Shown here piece by piece: positions 25,530 to 43,797 of a DNA stretch of 64,000 bases. Position numbers and translations under genes: made by a program. The notes under the pieces were generated by a model. It did no database searches. It saw nothing but the letters and a program-made list of their open reading frames with translations, and had not been told where the DNA came from. Source of the stretch: Squalus acanthias (lineage: Eukaryota); the NCBI GenBank assembly GCA_030390025.1, contig JASTWF010000033.1, positions 5,024,001 to 5,088,000 of the forward strand, in the 5' to 3' direction. The stretch's first letter is position 1. Every line of letters begins with the position of its first letter.

Positions 25530-27412
25530 GGTTTAAGCCCTGTTTTCTCCCATTCTCCAGTCTCTTCCCACCTACATCCGCGACTCTTCCAACACGCTCC
25601 GCCATTTTAACAGTTTCCAGTTTCCTGGACCCAACCGCCTCCTTTTCACTGTGGATGTTCAATCCCTCTACACCTCCATTCCCCACCAGGATGGCCTGAG
25701 GGCGCTCCGCTTCTTCATTGAACAGAGACCCAACCAGTCCCCATCCACCACCACCCACCTCCGCCTGGCTGAACTTGTTCTCATATTGAACAACTTCTCC
25801 TTTTACTCCACTCATTTCTTCCAAATCAAAGGTGTTGCTATGTGAACCCGCATGGGTCCCAGCTATGCCTGCCTTTTCGTGGGATATGTGGAACATTATT
25901 TGTTCCAGTCCTACTCAAGTCCCCTCCCTCACCTCTTTTTCCGGTACATTCATGATTGTATTGGTGCCGTTTCCTGCTCTCGCCCTGAACTTTCATTCAC
26001 TTTGCTTTCAATTTCCACCATTCCCTCACCTTCACCTGGTCCATCTCCGACTCTTCCCTTCACTTCCTAGACTTCTTCGTCTCCATCTCTGTGGATAGGT
26101 TATTGACAAACATTCACCACAAGCCCACTCAATCCCACAGCTACCTGGACTGCACTTCCTCCCACCCCGCCTCCTGTACGGACTCTATTCCCTTCTCCCA
26201 GTTTCTCCATCTCCGCTTCATCTGCTCTGACGATGCCACCTTCCATACCAGTGCTTCCGACATGTATTCCTTTTTCCCCAATCTAGGATTCCCCTCTACT
26301 GTGTTTGGCACGGCCTTTGACCGTGTCCGTTCTATCTCCCGCACTTCTGCCCTCACCTCTTCCCCTCCCTCCCTGAACCACGATAGGGTTCCCCTTGTCC
26401 TCACCTTTCACGCCACCAGCCTCCACATTCAACGGATCACCCTCTGCCATTTCCGCCACCTCCAGTGTGATCCCACTACCAAACACATCTTCCACTCACC
26501 TCCCCTTTCAGCATTCCGTAGGGACCACTCCCTCCGCGACACCCAAGACCACTCCTCTACCACCGCCAGCACCCCTTCCCCTTCGACCGGCACCTTCCCG
26601 TGCAAGCGCAGGAGATGCAGCACATGCCCTTATACCTCCCCCCCTTCCCACTGTCCAGGGCCCCAAACACCCCTTCCAGGTGAAACAGCGATTTACTTGT
26701 ACTTCCTGCAATTTAGTATCCTGTATTCGCTGCTGACGATGTGGTCTCCTCTACATTGGGGAGATCAAACGCAGATTGGGTGACCACTTTGCGGAACATC
26801 TCTGTTCAGTCCGTAAGGGGGACCCCAAGCTCCCAGTCGCCTGTCACTTTCATTCTTCGCACCACTCCCACTCAGACCTCACCGTCCTCGGTCTCTTGCA
26901 TTGTTCAACTGAAGCTCAGTGCAAGCTCGAGGAACAGCACCTCATCATTCGATTAGGCACTTTACAGCCACCTGGACTCAAATAGAGTTCAACAATTTCA
27001 GATCATAACCTCGGCCCCTGTCATATATATATTTTTCATCCAGACGTTGTGTCTGTGCGTTTTCTTCTTCTCTCCCACATGGCAGCTGTCTTTTATTCTG
27101 CCAGCGCGATTCACACTTCATCGAGAGCCATCCTTTGTTTCTTAACCTGTCCCATTACCATCTCCTTTTGCCTTGAATATCTCTTAATGTCTCTTAACCT
27201 CTCCTGCCTTCTATCCTATCACAGACCTTCCCTTTTGTTCTTTCATCCACTCCCCCCTTTCCCAGCCCCTTGCATTTGCTTAAAAATCTGTTCCATTTCT
27301 GCTTTTTTTCCTGTTCTGACGAAATGTCATCGACCTGAAACGTTAACTCTGTTTCTCTCTTCACAGATGCTGATTGACCTGCTGAGTATCTCCAGCATTT
27401 TCTGTTTTTAAT
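25530..27412 (+). mobile_element. Penelope-like element (RT + GIY-YIG, frameshifted)
   Basis: MDVQSLYTSIPH, FFQIKGVAM, MGPSYACLF, FFRYIHD, YIGEIKRRLGDHFAEHL; the empty site is visible in the paralogous spacer at ~36445. Confidence 0.92.
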
Positions 27413-27714
27413 TTATGTTAGTTTTTAATTCCTGATGTGCAGTCGCGAGAATCTTTTAAATGGCTCCGAACAGTTAACTTCCCCACTAACATCAGGGTAA
27501 ATGTTCCAGCATCTTAAACCTGGGAAATGTGCTTTGACCGCCTCTGGTCAGTCGGGCAGTTCAGCCCTTCATTCTCCTCTCATTCCGTTTCCCAAAGCTT
27601 TTGTATTGATTCTAAAACTGCTAAATGTGTTTTCTTGTTTGGTTCTTTTCGATGTTTCCCGCTCCCAAGTGTCACTATTTCCAAATGTCGTCGCAATCCT
27701 CCGCCTTAAATCAT

Positions 27715-28175
27715 GTCCAGGGATGAGGGTCTTCAGTGATGTGGAGAGGCTGGAGAAGCTGCTATTTCTCCTTATGCCACAGTAGGTTAATGGGAGATTT
27801 AATAGATGTGTTCACAATGATGGGGCGGGTGGGGGGCGTTGATAAAGCAGACAGGGATAAACTGTTTCCACTGACAGGAGAGTCGGTTACAAGAGGACAC
27901 AGATTTAAGATAATCGGTAAAACAATAAGCCCGGAATAGGCGAGGCGAATTTTTTTAGGCAGCGAGTTGTTATGATCTGGAATGCACTGTTTGAAAGGCC
28001 GGTGGAAGCTGATTCAATAGTATCTTTCAAAAGGGAAGATGAAAAAGAAAAGCATTGCAGGGCTGAGAGTAAAGAGCTGAGGAGTGGGACTAATTGGAAA
28101 GCTCTTTCAAAGAGGCGGCACAGGCACGATGGGCCAATGGCCTCCTTTAGTGCTGTATGATTCTATGATTCTATG
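27715..28175 (+). mobile_element. CR1 3' fragment
   Basis: GDLIDVF..LFPLTGESVTRGH, MIWNAL; (ATGATTCT)n tail. Confidence 0.85.
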
Positions 28176-28381
28176 TCCCATCGTTGACAGCAGCCCCTAC
28201 CCGCGGGAAGCGTTTCCCCACCTCTCCCGTGTGTGAGCTGTAAAATGCAGTGGAGGAGATGGATTGAGAGCTTTTCGTGTGGGACACAAGTGATGTTGTT
28301 TAAGGCAAACCAACACATTCCCGATCAGCACAGAGGGAGTTCACTGGTGAGGTCCCCTCTGCTGTCTCTGTAATGTCAGCG

Positions 28382-28454
28382 GGTTCCGTAGTGTAGTGGT
28401 TATCACGTTCGATTTACATGCGAAACATCTTCGGTTTGATCCCGGTTGGATTCA
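28382..28454 (+). pseudogene. tRNA-Val(TAC) pseudogene
   Basis: GGTTCCGTAGTGTAGTGGTTATCACGTTCGATTTACATGCGAA; T-arm degenerate. Confidence 0.8.
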
Positions 28455-28832
28455 TTATGTTTCAACTTGCTGTGGATTAACATCGAGAGGCGAGTTTATT
28501 CTCCTGTCAAAATGGCTGCAGTGGCTGGTCCCTTATTATTTAACTGCTCTTTATTTCACTTCATTCATAGATAAACTTTGAGTGAGAGGAGACTGATTCA
28601 CAATGACGCACATTACATCTTTTGTTCCCTTGGGAAACTCCGACTCCTTCCCGAGTAAAGTTCAGAAATGTGTTCCTTAATCTGCATGGTGGCCGTCAGT
28701 AAGAAGCCTTTTCTGTCTGGATCCGGGATTGGAGCTGGTTTCAGGCTGAAGATTGCCGACTCAGTCGATAGAATTGTGGTGGGTAAGGGTATTAATGGCT
28801 GGGGAACCTAAGCGGGTAGATGGAGTTAAGAT

Positions 28833-30900
28833 AATAAGAACATAAGAACATAAGAAATAGGAGCAGGAGTAGGCCAATCGGCCCCTCGAGCCTGCTCCGC
28901 CATTCAATAAGATCATGGCTGATCTGATCCTAACCGCCAATCTATTATCTATCACAGAACCATCTCCTGCATCTAACAGAATTGCACACACGAAATAGGA
29001 GCAGAATCAGGCTACACGGTCCCTGGGCCCGCTCCACTACCCACAGGGTCATGACCGATCCGAACCTAGACTCATGTCCAAATTCCTGCCCGCTCCCCGT
29101 AACCCTTAATGCCGTTTATTTGTAGGAAACTGTCTATTTCTGTTTTAAATTTATTTAATGATGTAGCTTCTACAGCTTTTTGTGGCAGCATATTCCATGG
29201 ACCTACCACCCTCTGAGTGAAGTAGTTCCTCCTCATCTCAGTTTTGAAAGAGCAGCCCCTTATTCTAAGACTATGTCCCCTAGTTCTAGTCTCACCCGTC
29301 ATCGGGAACATCCTCCCCGCATCCACCCAATCCAACCCCTTCACAATCTTATATGTTTCAATAAGATCGCCTCTCATTCTTCTGAACTCCAATGAGTAGA
29401 GTCCCAATCTACACAACCTCTCCTCATATGACCACCCCCTCATCCCCGGGATTAACCGAGTGAACCTTTTTTGCACTGCCTCGAGAGCAAGGATGTCTTT
29501 CCTTAAGTAAGGACACCAAAACTGTATGCAGTATTCCAGGTGCGGTCTCACCAATACCTTGTACAACTGAAGCAGTACCTCCCTATTTTTATATTCTATC
29601 CCCCTAGCAATGAAAGCCAACATTCCATTTGCCTTCTTAATCACTTGCTGCACCTGCATACTAACCTTTTGAGTTTCGTGCACCAGGACCCCCAGATCCC
29701 TTTGCACTTCAGTACTCTCCAGTTTCTTGCCATTAAGATAATAAATTGCTCTAGGATTTTTCCTGCCAAAGTGCATCACCTCACACTTTCCAGTGTTGTA
29801 TTCCATCTGCCAAATCTCTGCCCACTTACTTAGCCTGTCTATGTCCCCTTGCAGGTTTTTTATGTCCTCCTCACTCACTACTTTCCCTCCCATCTTTGTA
29901 TCATCTGCAAATTTTGATATGTTACACTTGGTCCCTTCCTCCAAATCGTTAATATAGATTGTAAAGAGCTGGGGACCCAGCACTGACCCCTGTGGAACAC
30001 CACTAGTTACTGCTGGCCAGTCTGAGAATGAACCATTTATCCCAACTGTTTGCTTTCTGTTAGATAGCCAATCCTCTATCCATGCCAAAATATTACCCCC
30101 AATCCCGTGATTTTTTACCTTAAGCAATAATCTTTTGTGTGGCACCTTGTCAAATGCCTTTTGGAAGTCTAAATACACTATGTCCACTGGTTCCCCTTTA
30201 TCCACTCTATATGTTACTTCCTCAAAGAACTCCAGCAAATTTGTCAAACATGACTTCCCCTTCGTAAAACCATGCTGACTTTGTCCTATTAAATTATGAT
30301 TATCCAAATGTCCTGTTACTGTTTCCTTAATAATGGACTCCAAAATTTTACCTACCACAGATGTTAGGCTAACCGATCTATAGTTACCAGCCTTCTGTCT
30401 ACTGCCCTTTTTAAATAAGGGTGTTACATTAGCAGTTTTCCAGTCTGCCGGGACCTTAGCGGAATCCAGGGAGTTTTGAAAAATTATTACCAATGCATCT
30501 ACAATCCCTACCGCCACTTCCTTCAAGACTCTAGGATGTAAGCCATCAGGTCCAGGTGATTTATCCGCCTTGAGTCCCATTATTTTACCGAGTACCACTT
30601 CCTTAGTAATTTTGATCGTGTTTAGCTCCTCTCCCCCTATAGCCCCCTGTTTGTCCAGTGTTGGGATATTCTTAGTGTCCTCTACTGTAAAGACTGATAC
30701 AAAATATTCATTCAGTGTTTTTGCCATCTCCATATTTCCCACCATTAATTTCCCGGTCTCATCCTCTAAGGGACCAATATTTACTTTAGCCACCCTTCTT
30801 CTTTTTATATAACTATAAAAACTCTTACTATCTGTTTTTATATTTTTTGCTAATTTACTTTCATAATCTATCTTCCCTTTCTTAATCAATCTTTTTGTTA
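28833..30900 (-). mobile_element. Young 5'-truncated CR1, open 605-aa RT/C-terminal frame (29072-30889)
   Basis: Uninterrupted ORF nearly identical to the C-terminal part of 58090-61041; sits inside an older plus-strand CR1 3' UTR (28785-28832 / 30901-30958). Confidence 0.97.
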
Positions 30901-30995
30901 TGATCTAACTGATTGGCGTACAGGCTCCTGGGGCTGAATGGACTCCTCCTATCCCTATTGAGTCGCTGCAATGCAATGCACCCCAGTGCTGGAGG

Positions 30996-31069
30996 GTTTC
31001 CGGTGTGTAGTGGTTATCGCTAGTCCGCTAACACACGAAATCTCAACGGTTCGATAGTGGGTAGAGACA
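30996..31069 (+). pseudogene. tRNA-Val(AAC) pseudogene
   Basis: GTTTCCGGTGTGTAGTGGTTATC...CTAACAC...GGTTCGA...GAGACA. Confidence 0.75.
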
Positions 31070-31462
31070 ATCTGATGCCTTTTCTCCATTCAAGTTTAAT
31101 AAATATGAAAACTGCAATAATTTACATGTTTGGTTAAGTATAAATAAAATACGCATTGACAGGCGGATTATGCCATTCAAATGGCAAAGCTACAGTGAGT
31201 GAAATAATTCTCAATGATATTTCCCATATAGGACACAGTTTTGGTTGTGGACTATGAGTTCTTTATCGGGAAAGTTAGCGCGGATTTAGGGAATCTCGCC
31301 CTCACGTGTCGCTACTGAAGAGGTGGACTTATTTTAGGTAAAAATTGAGGCTCGGAACCTTCTCATTGAGAATTTGGGATCAGAACAACACAGATTTATA
31401 GGAAAACACAGGGTCAGCGACAGGATTCGAATTACAATTGGAATCGGTCTGGGTGTCCTTTT

Positions 31463-31548
31463 AGAAAGTTAGTCGAGGGACGTGATTCTCGTTTCGGGAA
31501 TGTTGGTTGAATTTTGCGAGGTGCCGGGTTCAAATCCCGGACGAGCCC
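31463..31548 (+). pseudogene. tRNA-Pro(CGG) pseudogene with 16-nt insert after position 37
   Basis: TGATTCTCGTTTCGGG [AATGTTGGTTGAATTT] TGCGAGGTGCCGGGTTCAAATCCCGGACGAGCCC; 5' acceptor strand lost. Confidence 0.85.
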
Positions 31549-32375
31549 GAGATTTGAACTTGAAGTTGAAACTTATAACAAGAAAGACTTGCCTTTCTAC
31601 AGCGCATTGTACCCACTCAGGCTGTCACAAAGTGCTTTACAGCCATTGAAGTACCTTTGAAGTGTTGTAATGTGGGGAAAGGTGTGCCCAATTCATCTCA
31701 CACAAATCTCAACTCTTCGGGCAAGAGTTCGGTGCAAATAATCAGGCGCTTCAATGATGTGGACTTTCTTTGAATGAGTTCTGCTTGTAACTGCACTCGA
31801 CCTTGACACAGCACCTGGGCTTCCATCTCACGGGAGCACAGTGTGGTCGATGTGTAGCGGTTCGCGAGTAGGTGAAGAGGTTGGGGTTCAGATTCGTCGC
31901 TTTCAATCTTTGAAATTTCACCAAGGGCCAGAGGAAAGAAACGTGAATGGAACTGTCCCTGTGAGCGATGGATTGAAGGGAACGTCGCTCCAAGCACAGC
32001 TGGAAAACAGGCATTGCAGTGATAGAGTTCGCATCATTAAATGTCAGAGTTAATAATCATACAATAATTAAACATACACTTAACACCAGTATTTACGACA
32101 AAAACCTGCGAGTTTTAGCCGGAGAACTCTAACATGTGATAGTTCCGAGCTCTATATGGAGGTGGGATTTCGAAAACTCGCCTCCAAAAGAGCGGGCACT
32201 CGTACGATGGGCCGAATGGTTTGCTCTGCTTACACAGAACGCATGCGCAGGATAACTGGAATACTATTTATTCTCGACCCGAAATCTTCTCTCAGCATTT
32301 ACGGAGGACAAGAATGAGTGAAACTTTCTCTGGGCCTCTGGGGAAATTCAGGCACATTGAAGGCCTGTCCCATGC

Positions 32376-32458
32376 GTGAGGGTGGCCGAGAGGTTTCAGG
32401 TGCTGCGCTTCGATCGCAATATTCCCTGATGGCCTGGCTTCGAAAATCATTTCTGACA
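32376..32458 (+). pseudogene. tRNA-Leu (CAG-type body) pseudogene
   Basis: 83 nt: GTGAGGGTGGCCGAGAGG...GCTGCG...TCGCA...TTCGAA...CTGACA aligns with vertebrate tRNA-Leu(CAG). Confidence 0.7.
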
Positions 32459-32589
32459 TACAGTTCTTCTCACTTTTACGAGCAATTATATCTTGTGGAA
32501 ATAGCAGAAGCTGATTTTTAAACCCAGTTCATTCGTTCCTGTCATAAAACTCACCCCACCTCCATCCACCGCATGTTGTGACGTCACAA

Positions 32590-33977
32590 TTCAAAAAGTG
32601 ATGCAGACAAGAGGAAGCAGCTGATTGGGTGAGTACGGCCAGGTGAGTATTTATACTACTCGGTAGTTTGACAGTTAAGTTTAGTAGTTTATCAAGATTC
32701 GAAGGCCCTAATTTTTGTGGTTGTAGTTTCTAATGTCTCTATTGTGTAGCAGGGAGTGCTAGTATACAAGGGCCCTTCAGTATATCATTTAATTTTAGTG
32801 TAATTTGTGGTATTGATTTGAGTTAATTTAAATTAATTAAAGGATAAGTCATGGCAGCACAGTTCAGCCCCGTGGCATGCTCCTGCTGCACTATGTGGAA
32901 AATCGGGGACACTTCCTGTGTCCCTGTTGACCATTTGTGCGGGAAGTGTATACGGCTGCAGCTACTGGCAGACCGCATTGCGGCGCTGGAGCTGTGAATG
33001 GATGCATACCGGAACATTCGCGATGCTGAAGATATCGTGGATAGCAAGTTTAGGGAGTTGATCACACCGCAGGTAAAGGCTGCCCAGGCAGGAAGGGAAT
33101 GGGTGACCACCAGGCTGAGTAGTCGGCGCACGCAGGTAGTGCAGGGGTCCCCTGTGGACATCCCCCTCTGAAACAGATATACCACTTTGGATATTGTTGT
33201 GGGAGATGGCTTATCGGGGGAAGGCAGCAGCAGCCAACTTCCTGACACCATGGATGGCTCTGCTGCACAGGACGGGAGGAAAAAGAGAGGGAGATCTATA
33301 GTGATAGGGGATTCTATTGTCAGGGGAATAGATAGGCATTTCTGTGGCCACAAAAGAGACTCTAGGATGGTATGTTGCCTCCCTGGTGCAAGGGTCAAGG
33401 ATGTCTCGGAGCGGTTGCAGGGCATTCTGGAGGGTGAGGGAGAACAGACACTTGTCGTGGTGCATATAGGTACCAACGATATCGGTAAAGAACGGGATGT
33501 GGTCCTAAAAGCTGAATATAGGGAGTTAGGAGGTAAATTAAAAAATAGGACCTCAAAGGTAGTAATCTCAGGATTTCTACCGGTGCCACATGCTAGTCAG
33601 GGTAGAAATAGAAGGATATTTCAGATGAATACGTGGCGAGAGGAATGGTACAAGGGGGAGGGATTCAAATTCCTGGGACATTGGAACCGGTTCTTGGGGA
33701 GGTGGGACCAGTACAAACCGGGCAGTCTACACCTGGGCAGGACCGGGACCGATGTCCTCGGGGGAGTGTTTGCGAGTGCTGTTAGGGAGGGTTTAAACTA
33801 AAATAGCAGGGGGTTGGAAACATGTGTAGGGAAACAGAGGTAAAGGAAGCAAGGATAGAAACAAAAGACAGGAAGGAGTAAAGCAAAAGTGGAAGGTCAG
33901 CCATGATCTCATTAAATGGCGGAGCAGGCTCGACGGGCCGAATGGCCTACTCCTGCTCCTATCTTCTATGCTTCTAT
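32590..33977 (+). mobile_element. CR1 derivative: 5' UTR + ORF1 (32851-33801, internal stops) joined directly to the 3' UTR; ORF2 absent
   Basis: MAAQFSPVACSCCTMW..LCGKC, VIGDSIVRG, VHIGTND, LHL (SGNH esterase); junction to CAGCCATGATCTC..tail at ~33897. Confidence 0.9.
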
Positions 33978-34159
33978 ACCGCACCAAGAGCCGATCACAC
34001 ATCTCCTGAATGCACTAACCTACAATGACACGCTGGCCTCTCAATGCCCCAAAATTCAAATTCACATCCTGGGATTTAAATCTTTTCATGATATCCTCCC
34101 TCCCTATATATTTTACCTTCACCGGCGCTACAATACCCCACCCACGCTCTCAGTTACTA

Positions 34160-34800
34160 GCTTGCTGAGGGAAGCTAGGGTGCAGATAGCAGAGGCTCTG
34201 ACCACAATATTTGACTCCTCCTTGGATCGAAGTGTGGAGTGGTGCCAGATTGCAAATGTTACACACTAATTCATAAAATGGGCGAGGGATAAGCCTTAAA
34301 CCACAGGACAATCAGTCTGATGTCAGCGGTGGGAAAACTATTCGAGTCCATTGCCAAGTTTTGCATCTGTTGCACACTTCGAAATTGTACTCCCTAAAGC
34401 CAAGTCCAGACCACGTATACTTAACAAGTAAAGTAATGATCCTAATTAATTGTCAAATTAATTCTCACTTGGAGAAGCATACCGGACAGCCAGCATGGAT
34501 TTGTTAAAGGGAAATCGTGCCTGATCTATCTGATTGAGTTCTTTGAAGACCTAACATAAGGTGTTGATGGAGGGGTGGGGGAGTGGATGTTGAATCTATG
34601 GACTTTCAAAAGGCACTTGATTAAAATACCACGAGCAGACTTACTCTGAGAATAGAAGTACATTGATGAAAGGCACGGTGGTAACTTGGGTTTGTAATTG
34701 GCTAAGGGATAGAAGGCAGATGTAGTGGTGAACGGATGTTTTTTCTGACTGGAGAGATGTGGGCTCCCCCAAGGGTTGCTGTCAGTATTTAGGACAATTG
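34160..34800 (+). mobile_element. Decayed CR1 RT fragments
   Basis: IAEALTTIF, CAGCATGGATTTGTTAAAGGGAAATCGTG and GACTTTCAAAAGGC motifs. Confidence 0.7.
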
Positions 34801-35372
34801 CTTTCCTTGTCACTTTTGGTAACATATCTTAATAGCTCTCTCTTTGGATTTGGCTTTCATATTTTTGATTCCAACTCTATTGGGAGATCCCCTGGAACTG
34901 CGGAGCGGGGCATGGTTTATCAAGCTGTGTGGAACACTTCACAGAATATGTGTGTTCGTGTCTGCTTGTTGCATTAATTAAATGAGGACATCAGGCGATT
35001 CTCGGCCTGACACTGGGGAACTAGTGAGACAGACTTTAGGGCAAGGTTCTGGTTATTGTGAAAAGACAAAACAAACATGGGCCTTGAAATTGCAATCGGA
35101 GGCTTGCCGCCCGTATACGCCTCCGAACCGCAAGAAAACTACGTACGTACCTTGTGTCTCCGGAGCTTTGGACTATAAAGGTCCTGAATCCCCATAAGCA
35201 TCAAGGAATCTCCCTTTGTCATTGTTTGGCCTGGCCCACGTGATCCCAGGTACGCTTCCAAACCGGGACCTGTGGGCATTTACGCAGTCGGACGCCTGCA
35301 GTCCCAGTACCGGAAGAGTCCGAAGTTCCGGAGACACCAGGTCACTTCTTATTTTTTTTGTTTCGGAGGCAT

Positions 35373-35760
35373 AAGACTTGCATTTCTACAGCAGCTTTCC
35401 CCACCACTGGACATCTCAAAGCGGTTTACAGCCAATGAAGTACTTTTTGAAGTGGAGTCACTGTTGTAATGTAGGAAAAGCGGCAGCCAATTTTTGCACA
35501 GCAAGCTCCCACAAACAGCAATGTGACAATTATCAGATCATCTGTTTTTCTTATGTTGTTTGAGCGATAAATATTGGCCCAGGACACCGGGGGTAAATCC
35601 CCTGGACGTCTTTTAAATAATACCATGGAATCTTTTACATCCCCCTGATAGAGCAAACTGCGCCACGGTTTAACGTCTCATTCAAAAGACGGCACCTCCG
35701 CCACTGCAGCGCTCCCTCAGTACTTCACTGGAGTGTCTACCTAGATGTGTGTGTTCAAGC
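35373..35760 (-). mobile_element. DeuSINE-like SINE (SacSINE1/AmnSINE1-type central domain)
   Basis: Reverse complement contains GGAGGTGCCGTCTTTTGAATGAGACGTTAAACCG and GATGTAAAAGATTCCATGG; a 3' fragment also lies at ~31580-31700. Confidence 0.75.
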
Positions 35761-36086
35761 CAACAATTAAATGTAGCCTCACACGGTAAAACGACGTGTT
35801 CCCGTTCAATATATGGATCATAGAATGAATTTTCATTTGTTTATTTAAATCCCATAAAATTAAATTTATTTCCAAAGAGTTGGAAACAGGAATATGATCC
35901 ATCTACATTTAGTCATCATTTTACGTGAAATAAATACTCGTAAAAGTATTGGAGTGGGAACTCAGTGGATAACAGCACCCCTGGCAATGTTTGTGGAATA
36001 TTTTCTTGCAGCCAAAGCGCACATTAACAACCTGGAAGTGTGTGGGACTGAATCCGCAGGGGGAAAAAAAAAACAGTTACAGACTT

Positions 36087-36160
36087 CGTCCCTGGGTGGA
36101 GTCGAACCACCAAACTTTCGAGTTAACAGCCGAACGCGCTAAACAACTGCGCCACAGCAA
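36087..36160 (-). pseudogene. tRNA-Asn(GTT) pseudogene
   Basis: Reverse complement CTGTGGCGCAGTTGTTTAGCGCGTTCGGCTGTTAACTCGAAAGTTTGGTGGTTCGACTCCACCCAGGGACG; 5' end mismatched, 1-nt insertion. Confidence 0.88.
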
Positions 36161-36684
36161 AAGATGCAAACCCCTTTTGCAACGCATCCCAAACCAGGGT
36201 GTCAGTGAGTTAAAGATTCAGATTGCTCCGATCAGGATGGAACTTGTCCACTATCAGTTTTACTTTTCAAAAATAAAGGGTGCGACATTGATTGTGTATA
36301 CCTGGCAACAGTCTGGTCTCGCTCACTGCTGACACATCCATATCACCGTCAACCAGCTTTCCCGCAACAGGCGCGGTCTCCCTTCGAGCCTTTCGGTGCC
36401 TTGTCTGTGAAGAAGTATTCTGATTGTCCAGATGCCGGTATTATGTTTTAATTCCTGATCTGCATTAACGAGAATCTTTTATATTGCTCTGATAAGTTAA
36501 CTTCCCCGCTAACATCAGAGTAAATGTTCCAGTATCTTAAACCAGGGAAAGGTGCATTGACCGCTTCTGGTCAGTCAGGCAATTCAGCCCTTCATTTTCC
36601 TCTCATTCCGTTTCCCAAAGCGTTTCCAAAGATTCACAAAACTGCTAACTGTGTTTCGTTTTTTGGTTCATTCTGATTTCCTGC

Positions 36685-36765
36685 TTCAGGCTGGTGGAGC
36701 GGTCTAAGGCGCTGGATTTAGATTATAGATTGCTCTGGCCGTGGGTTAGAATTCCACTTCTGCCA
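36685..36765 (+). pseudogene. tRNA-Leu(TAG) pseudogene
   Basis: GAGCGGTCTAAGGCGCTGGATTTAG...CGTGGGTTAGAATTCCAC..TGCCA; downstream flank resembles that of 32376-32458. Confidence 0.8.
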
Positions 36766-37697
36766 TACGGTTCATTTCAATTTTAGTGCAATTATATCTT
36801 GTGGAATTAGCTACAACTTCTTTTTCAGCCCAGTTTATTTGTCATTCGGTAAAGCGATACAAACTACATTTCCTTGCCTTCTGTAAAATGCCAGCTGTTT
36901 CAACAAAGCCAGCAGGAAATGACTAGCACTTTCTGTCAACATGTAGAACGAGACACTTTCAATGTTTACATGCCCACATTTAACGCAGCTCACAGTGTCA
37001 GAACAGTCAACCTTATCACTAGCCTTCCATGTATCTTGTTGAACTGCATCTCCCCAACAACCTTAGCTTATCACAGCACGGCTATCAATCAATTCATTGC
37101 CAGTGTGAAAAATGCACCATCTGAAACTTAGCAACGTGTGCAAGACTGGAATCAGAGAGTGTCTGGGCCGTGGGCAGTGATAACTTATACTGAGCATTAA
37201 GATATTCATTAGTCCTGAGCTCTTCCTGTATTGCTCAGTAGCCCACTGAGTGAGGAACTAAGAGACCACAGGCCGGGGATGGAGCCTGGGCATTTTCAGT
37301 TCTGTGTGGGGCTCAACAACTTACCTGCTGCTGAAGATTGAACTTGACATAATTTCAGCAGCTCGGGATCAGTGCGGCTTAGTTGGAGTTCAACCAGTCG
37401 CACCCTTCACAACCCATCAGTGCCGAGAAAACAACGGAGAATTTTATACATGTGTTGTGTTCTGTAACTTTATATGAACATTTCAGTTTATTTCACGCTG
37501 TGACCAACACTGTGAGGATCCCACTGGTGTATCATCTTCGTATCTTTATCAGCACTCCAGCTTTACATTAACACAACCTGAGCTCCGCGATCTGGTCGGG
37601 TCCCATGCTCTGAAGTGAGGAATGAGCGGGAGTGGCAATTCCACCCGGGGTTAGAAAATCCTCCAAAATCATGACACAATATTTAGTTTACTGCGCA

Positions 37698-39349: not shown

Positions 39350-39472
39350 ACCTACGGCCATACTAGTCTGAAAACGCCAGATCTCGTCTTACCTCTGGAA
39401 GTCTAAGCAGAGTTCAGCCCTGGGTAGTACTCAGGTGGGAGATCGCCTGGTAATATCAGGTGAAGTAGACTT
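39350..39472 (+). pseudogene. 5S rRNA pseudogene (full length, degenerate)
   Basis: ACCTACGGCCATACTAGTCTGAAAACGCCAGATCTCGTC...TAGTACT...GGGAGATCGCCTGG...CAGGTG..GTAGACTT. Confidence 0.9.
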
Positions 39473-43676: not shown

Positions 43677-43797
43677 GCCTACGGCCATACTAGTCTGAAA
43701 ACTCCCGATCTTCTCTGATTTCAGAAACTAAGCAGAGTCAGGCCTGGTTAGTTACTTGTTTGGGAGACCGCCTGGCAATGTCAAGTGCAGTATGCTT
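43677..43797 (+). pseudogene. 5S rRNA pseudogene/variant with TTTT terminator
   Basis: GCCTACGGCCATACTAGTCTGAAAAC...AACTAAGCAGAGTCAGGCCTGGTTAGTTACTTG..TGGGAGACCGCCTGG...GCTTTT; AT-rich TTTAAGTAAAG near -30. Confidence 0.9.

Follow-up and report, generated by a model that had tools for sequence, protein, structure and literature searches.

A damaged tRNA-Pro(CGG) gene lies at 31468-31548 of the window, by which we mean the whole stretch of 64,000 nucleotides of Squalus acanthias DNA analysed here (G000:C2561:5024001-5088000, from an assembly of 3.71 Gb). Its anticodon loop is interrupted by 16 nt. Is this insert an accident that befell a dead gene, or is it the trace of an intron carried by a living family of tRNA-Pro genes?

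The relic and its history

The relic and its immediate surroundings consist of the following parts, where L008 is an intact gene used for comparison.

30903-31469, plus strand: upstream segment that derives from elsewhere in the parent C21 tRNA cluster, joined to gene base 6 by a deletion
31468-31498, plus strand: what is left of the tRNA-Pro(CGG) 5' exon (base 6 through G37), with damaged D arm and A box
31499-31514, plus strand: the 16-nt insert between bases 37 and 38, which comparison with L008 identifies as a decayed tRNA intron
31515-31548, plus strand: 3' exon, including the B box and the acceptor strand of that side, carrying a 2-nt deletion and one T-stem substitution
31549-32163, plus strand: 3' flank homologous to that of L008, in which a 13-nt deletion took out the T4 terminator
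26974-36985, plus strand: section of a segmental duplication that holds decayed tRNA genes, the relic among them, 99.3% identical to L109

The anticodon CGG occupies 31495-31497 and is followed by G37 at 31498. The insert sits at exactly the site of the 16-nt insert of L008 and shares 12 of its 16 bases with the L008 intron, so that its placement between bases 37 and 38, proposed in the initial annotation, is borne out. Base -3 of the intron is T, and the anticodon-intron (A-I) pair with U32 is lost. The 5' exon differs from the intronless gene L061 at 10 of 35 positions (36-base exon, anticodon base 34 omitted), several changes relative to L008 fall in the D arm, and the paired acceptor stem is absent, bases 1-5 being replaced through a deletion. 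The loss of the 5' acceptor strand had been noticed before and holds: the first 5 bases differ at 4, and homology to the parent begins at 31468. The 3' end, described initially as intact, is so for the most part; the exceptions are the T-stem substitution and the 2-nt deletion, which in comparison with L008 sits directly after the anticodon stem. The Pol III terminator is missing together with the A-I pair, and the first T4 lies 564 nt downstream. Neither ARAGORN (default) nor Rfam calls the relic. Judged by its sequence, the flagged copy is an ordinary pseudogene of the 16-nt CGG lineage, which would be neither charged nor spliced at the 3' site.

The relic descends from the 16-nt CGG lineage of C21, with 81.5% identity to the L008 region across 31468-32163. 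In the C21 cluster the homologue of 30903-31469 lies upstream of the Pro gene, at a distance of 3.8 kb in L095 and of 3.0 kb in L094. The deletion that removed bases 1-5 has a 2-nt microhomology at its junction and measures about 3.8 kb against L095 and 3.0 kb against L094. The match to L109, elsewhere on the relic's own contig, spans all 10 kb compared, which is the minimum extent of the duplicated block. Of 528 candidate places for further copies 40 were scored, and 15 of these show 94-100% identity across 131 bases. T is present at intron position -3 in 30 of 30 decayed relatives (L031-L060) as well as in the relic, a pattern that we read as one inherited loss in a single shared ancestor. 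The history of this copy is as follows: it lost bases 1-5 to the deletion, it lost the pair and the terminator, and it spread via segmental duplication.

The relic is surrounded by a decayed cluster (24019-48016) with remnants of Lys, Val, Asn, Asp and Glu tRNAs and with two 5S rRNA copies, at 39350-39471 and 43677-43796. A retroelement piece of about 2 kb occupies 28834-30900, with an ORF on the minus strand (29072-30904, 610-codon open frame) that carries an RVT_1 domain; from its motif we take it to be probably a CR1-type LINE. It is present in the window and in L109 but absent from L110-L112, therefore it was inserted after part of the duplications.

The intron-bearing genes of the genome

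A pattern of the Pro-CGG anticodon arm with an 8-30 nt insert matches the genome 184 times, while the reversed control pattern matches 0 times, so the insert pattern is not due to chance. These 184 matches, some of them in genes that are still intact, establish the intron-containing tRNA-Pro(CGG) family that the initial annotation had supposed from the relic. The family is broader than CGG and includes all three Pro anticodons plus Arg-TCG; L008, L015 and L065 are examples of loci with intact genes. The corresponding AGG/GGG/TGG pattern with insert gives 376 matches, and the 100 matches listed are AGG and TGG. There are 447 tRNA-Pro genes with both ends intact; 437 have the spacing expected with an intron and 10 have intronless spacing (1 CGG, 4 AGG and 5 TGG). 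Intronless loci are found on C5, C6, C7 and C20. The counts come from exact-match patterns, the assembly may have merged or doubled some arrays, and the insert patterns admitted lengths up to 30 nt only.

The insert falls after base 37 throughout, in AGG, CGG and TGG genes (compared with the intronless L061 and by ARAGORN -i), and its length in the family is 16-22 nt. Most copies stand in tandem arrays with a unit of about 1.60-1.62 kb on C26 and on unplaced contigs. The unit comprises Pro (18-nt insert), Arg-TCG (17-nt insert at 37/38) and an intronless Ser-GCT; damaged tRNAs are present in some units. Most array Pro genes differ from the intronless gene at 0-1 exon positions, and the joined exons form a full cloverleaf tRNA. 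The 18-nt array genes lack a T4 terminator up to a point 55 nt downstream.

Hence, a one-off insertion into a dead tRNA-Pro copy has next to no likelihood as the source of the insert. The flagged copy is dead, as that explanation requires; its insert, however, is inherited from the intact genes L007/L008, and 437 intact-ended Pro genes carry inserts, so that the refuting condition set in the initial annotation, an insert in no other Pro gene, clearly fails.

Anticodons other than those of Pro are found on some family bodies and array units. Intron genes with a Pro body include one with a TCG-like anticodon (C26:41121120-41121207), and an AGT anticodon occurs on a damaged Pro body (L066:2778). 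At L106 (C394) and L107 (C247) the Ser-GCT gene of some AGG array units reads GTT at its anticodon but keeps the Ser body and its long variable arm; most of these genes have T-arm damage, and L107:5006 is largely intact in appearance.

The Arg/Trp stem pattern with an insert gives 394 matches, all 100 of those listed being TCG. The same pattern without an insert gives 100 matches, namely 98 CCA (Trp), 1 TCA and 1 TCG; it misses Arg-TCG isodecoders having another stem. In the common intron variants of Arg-TCG, C32 is found with G at -3. The gene with the 17-nt intron at 37/38 occurs at L015:1211-1302, in C26 arrays and in Pro's own array unit. The ends of the Arg-TCG intron loosely resemble those of some nearby Arg-TCT introns. 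An origin of Arg-TCG as an anticodon-switched Arg-TCT is ruled out, as the bodies differ; a transfer of the intron from Arg-TCT would be a conceivable source.

Tyr-GTA, Arg-TCT and Leu-CAA, which belong to the standard intron families, occur here as well, and their layout is that of Pro. They are amplified too, in tandem arrays of dozens: Tyr on C8 and C3821, Leu-CAA on C13, C575 and C3704, Arg-TCT on C26, C27, C319 and C460. Other isotypes except Thr and Ile-TAT were scanned with exact-match promoter-spacing patterns. For A boxes of the Val/Gln/Asp/His/Gly type, none of the 70 of 70 matches is a convincing intact intron gene; they comprise repeat-like sequences, decayed sequences and a single decayed Pro. 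The same holds for 10 of 10 matches of the Glu/Arg-CCG/CCT type, which comprise four decayed Pro genes with inserts and noise. Among the 100 of 178 matches listed for the Asn/Trp/Arg-ACG/iMet type only Arg-TCT and noise are found, and among the 100 of 139 listed for the Ala/Cys/Lys/Phe/Met type only Tyr and noise. The Ser/Leu type yields Leu-CAA apart from two internal duplications among the 100 of 139 matches listed. Also present is a tRNA-like family, multi-copy and decayed, whose frame resembles that of Arg-TCT and contains a long insert (C26:39537195, C394:86764, C3245:937733); it adjoins some 16-nt Pro-TGG genes.

Conserved pairing and the predicted splicing of the family

Four intron-bearing Pro lineages are distinguished among the loci compared: the 18-nt arrays of C26 (AGG, CGG, TGG), the 16-nt TGG genes of C26, the 16-nt CGG genes of C21 and the 21/22-nt AGG genes of C10. 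Between lineages the exons are 0.96-1.00 identical (0.93-0.97 for one damaged copy). The introns (0.38-0.67) and the 100-nt flanks (0.45-0.64) have diverged to random level, the shuffle baseline being 0.54. When the four introns are compared for a shared origin, no pair exceeds its shuffles (fraction 0.09-0.69). Gene conversion could be an alternative cause of the exon identity. Within the 18-nt lineage an identical intron with identical flanks occurs with different anticodons (L009 CGG and L080 AGG; L085 CGG and TGG), which points to anticodon switching as the likely source of this diversity.

One base of the intron is constant. All 19 distinct introns, in all 22 anticodon-intron combinations, have A at -3, and in each combination -4 also pairs with U33; the count covers genes with at most 2 exon mismatches at loci L001-L122 and is not a random sample of the 437. 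Pro genes with more exon damage, such as L064, L002 and the relics, sometimes have C or T at -3 instead. When the introns are shuffled, one per lineage, all four lineages show A at -3 in 0.9% of trials and both pairs in 0.3%; these values overstate independence and set an upper bound on the strength of the result, because the four lineages may share one origin. Two AGG introns of C10 pair with all five loop bases 32-36.

Hence, we suggest that the 16-22 nt insert of the intact Pro genes is, with high probability, a canonical tRNA intron that would be removed by the TSEN endonuclease and the RTCB ligase. The A-I pair is described as required for 3' cleavage by human TSEN in PMC8479045, and tRNA introns of 6-133 nt are given in PMC4090602, a range that includes the family inserts. 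The proposed pathway, in which transcription, end processing, cleavage and ligation are taken from established knowledge of TSEN and RTCB, is as follows. Pol III would transcribe the intact genes, and the ends of the pre-tRNA would be processed. The distance to the tRNA body would set the cut at 37/38, and the A-I pair would position the 3' cut. The exons would then be ligated into a mature tRNA-Pro that does not differ from the one made by the intronless genes. A search of the genome for the TSEN catalytic domain (PF01974) gave no match, such an exon-by-exon search being able to miss split domains, and MFE folding of the pre-tRNAs did not yield the cloverleaf.

Each of the three Pro anticodons is also served by intronless genes, so that the cell could in principle do without the intron genes; this, the distant T4 of the 18-nt array genes and the damaged tRNAs of some units weigh against the splicing reading. 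In the main rival explanation the intron genes would be mostly silent passengers of satellite-like arrays, with the 10 intronless genes supplying tRNA-Pro and the exons kept by gene conversion and recent amplification. The near-identity of the tandem units and the damage in many units and dispersed copies fit this explanation, as does the full coverage of the anticodons by intronless genes. However, conversion from intronless genes would not preserve the A-I base inside the introns, the exons are near-perfect in four lineages with unalignable flanks, and Arg-TCG has 1 intronless match versus 394 with an insert. We consider silent arrays quite unlikely and retain splicing of the intact genes as the preferred reading.

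Origin of the introns and known systems

The spliced tRNA set of vertebrates is usually taken from human and mouse and comprises four families. A low-scoring intron-bearing Pro-AGG entry is present in older human tRNA lists. The relic truly points to a tRNA intron of canonical type in tRNAs for which none is reported in human. No report of vertebrate intron-bearing Pro or Arg-TCG genes was found in the largely open-access literature covered, which includes passages of PMC8450103, PMC4090602, PMC13578239, PMC11552497 and 10.1101/2022.09.02.506201. It is very likely that standard tRNAscan-SE annotation of shark genomes already marks these genes.

Were the introns gained in cartilaginous fishes or retained from an ancestor? 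A serious but minority possibility, in our view, is that the introns of Pro and Arg-TCG go back to an ancestor and disappeared in mammals. Same-site Pro introns are common in other eukaryotes (at least 124 genes in at least 120 metagenome loci), and the four lineages are old enough for their flanks to be unalignable; on the other side, lineage-specific gains are described in yeasts (Yoshihisa 2014, PMC4090602). Among the 124 metagenome genes listed, none has exons identical to those of this genome, with at least 6 mismatches in complete ones, and therefore these genes say nothing on descent. In a further-reaching reading, which we hold to be less likely than not, cartilaginous fishes would have newly gained TSEN introns in Pro (three anticodons) and Arg-TCG and would have a two-tier supply: splicing-dependent genes, arrayed by the hundred and possibly serving oocytes or early embryos, would work alongside about 10 intronless genes with identical products.

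If the family is spliced, the vertebrate set is not fixed, two isotypes are added to it, and 437 of the 447 intact-ended Pro genes depend on TSEN; part of the reported shark excess of intron-containing tRNA loci would then be explained by isotype. How tRNA introns arise and why they are kept are open questions of the field, according to PMC4090602 and PMC10275265. The coexistence of intron-bearing and intronless genes with identical exons makes a direct test of intron gain and retention possible. If the introns were newly gained in cartilaginous fishes, their gain and spread could be dated in a vertebrate, and the purpose of the intron could be tested at constant mature tRNA.

The human intron-containing families are Tyr-GUA, Ile-UAU, Arg-UCU and Leu-CAA (PMC10275265 and PMC8479045). 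As in these families, the insert of the shark genes lies one base 3' of the anticodon, is short and varies in sequence among members, pyrimidine 32 pairs with a purine at intron -3, and a few intronless genes stand beside the intron-bearing ones. Unlike in human, the hosts are Pro (AGG, CGG, TGG) and Arg-TCG, which the accessible parts of the same two papers do not list for human, the copies number in hundreds in tandem arrays, and splicing is a prediction.

Many intron-bearing tRNA genes were found in shark genomes by tRNAscan-SE, according to the Squalomix preprint. These loci are probably the same as those of the Pro/Arg-TCG family; the main text of the preprint, to the extent accessible, names no isotype and has 0 mentions of tRNA-Pro or proline.

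The tRNA-Pro genes of metagenomes share the intron site, with a purine at -3 in 115 of the 124 genes listed. However, their exon sequences differ from those described here, and their hosts are probably fungi and protists, not vertebrate as far as can be told.

A parallel for a possible gain is given by yeasts, where PMC4090602 describes lineage-specific introns in Ala-UGC of Lachancea and Gly-UCC of Kluyveromyces. As in the yeast cases, an isotype that is intronless in relatives carries introns in one lineage, and the introns spread to other anticodons by switching. Unlike there, the host is a vertebrate, and intron-bearing and intronless genes with identical exons persist side by side.
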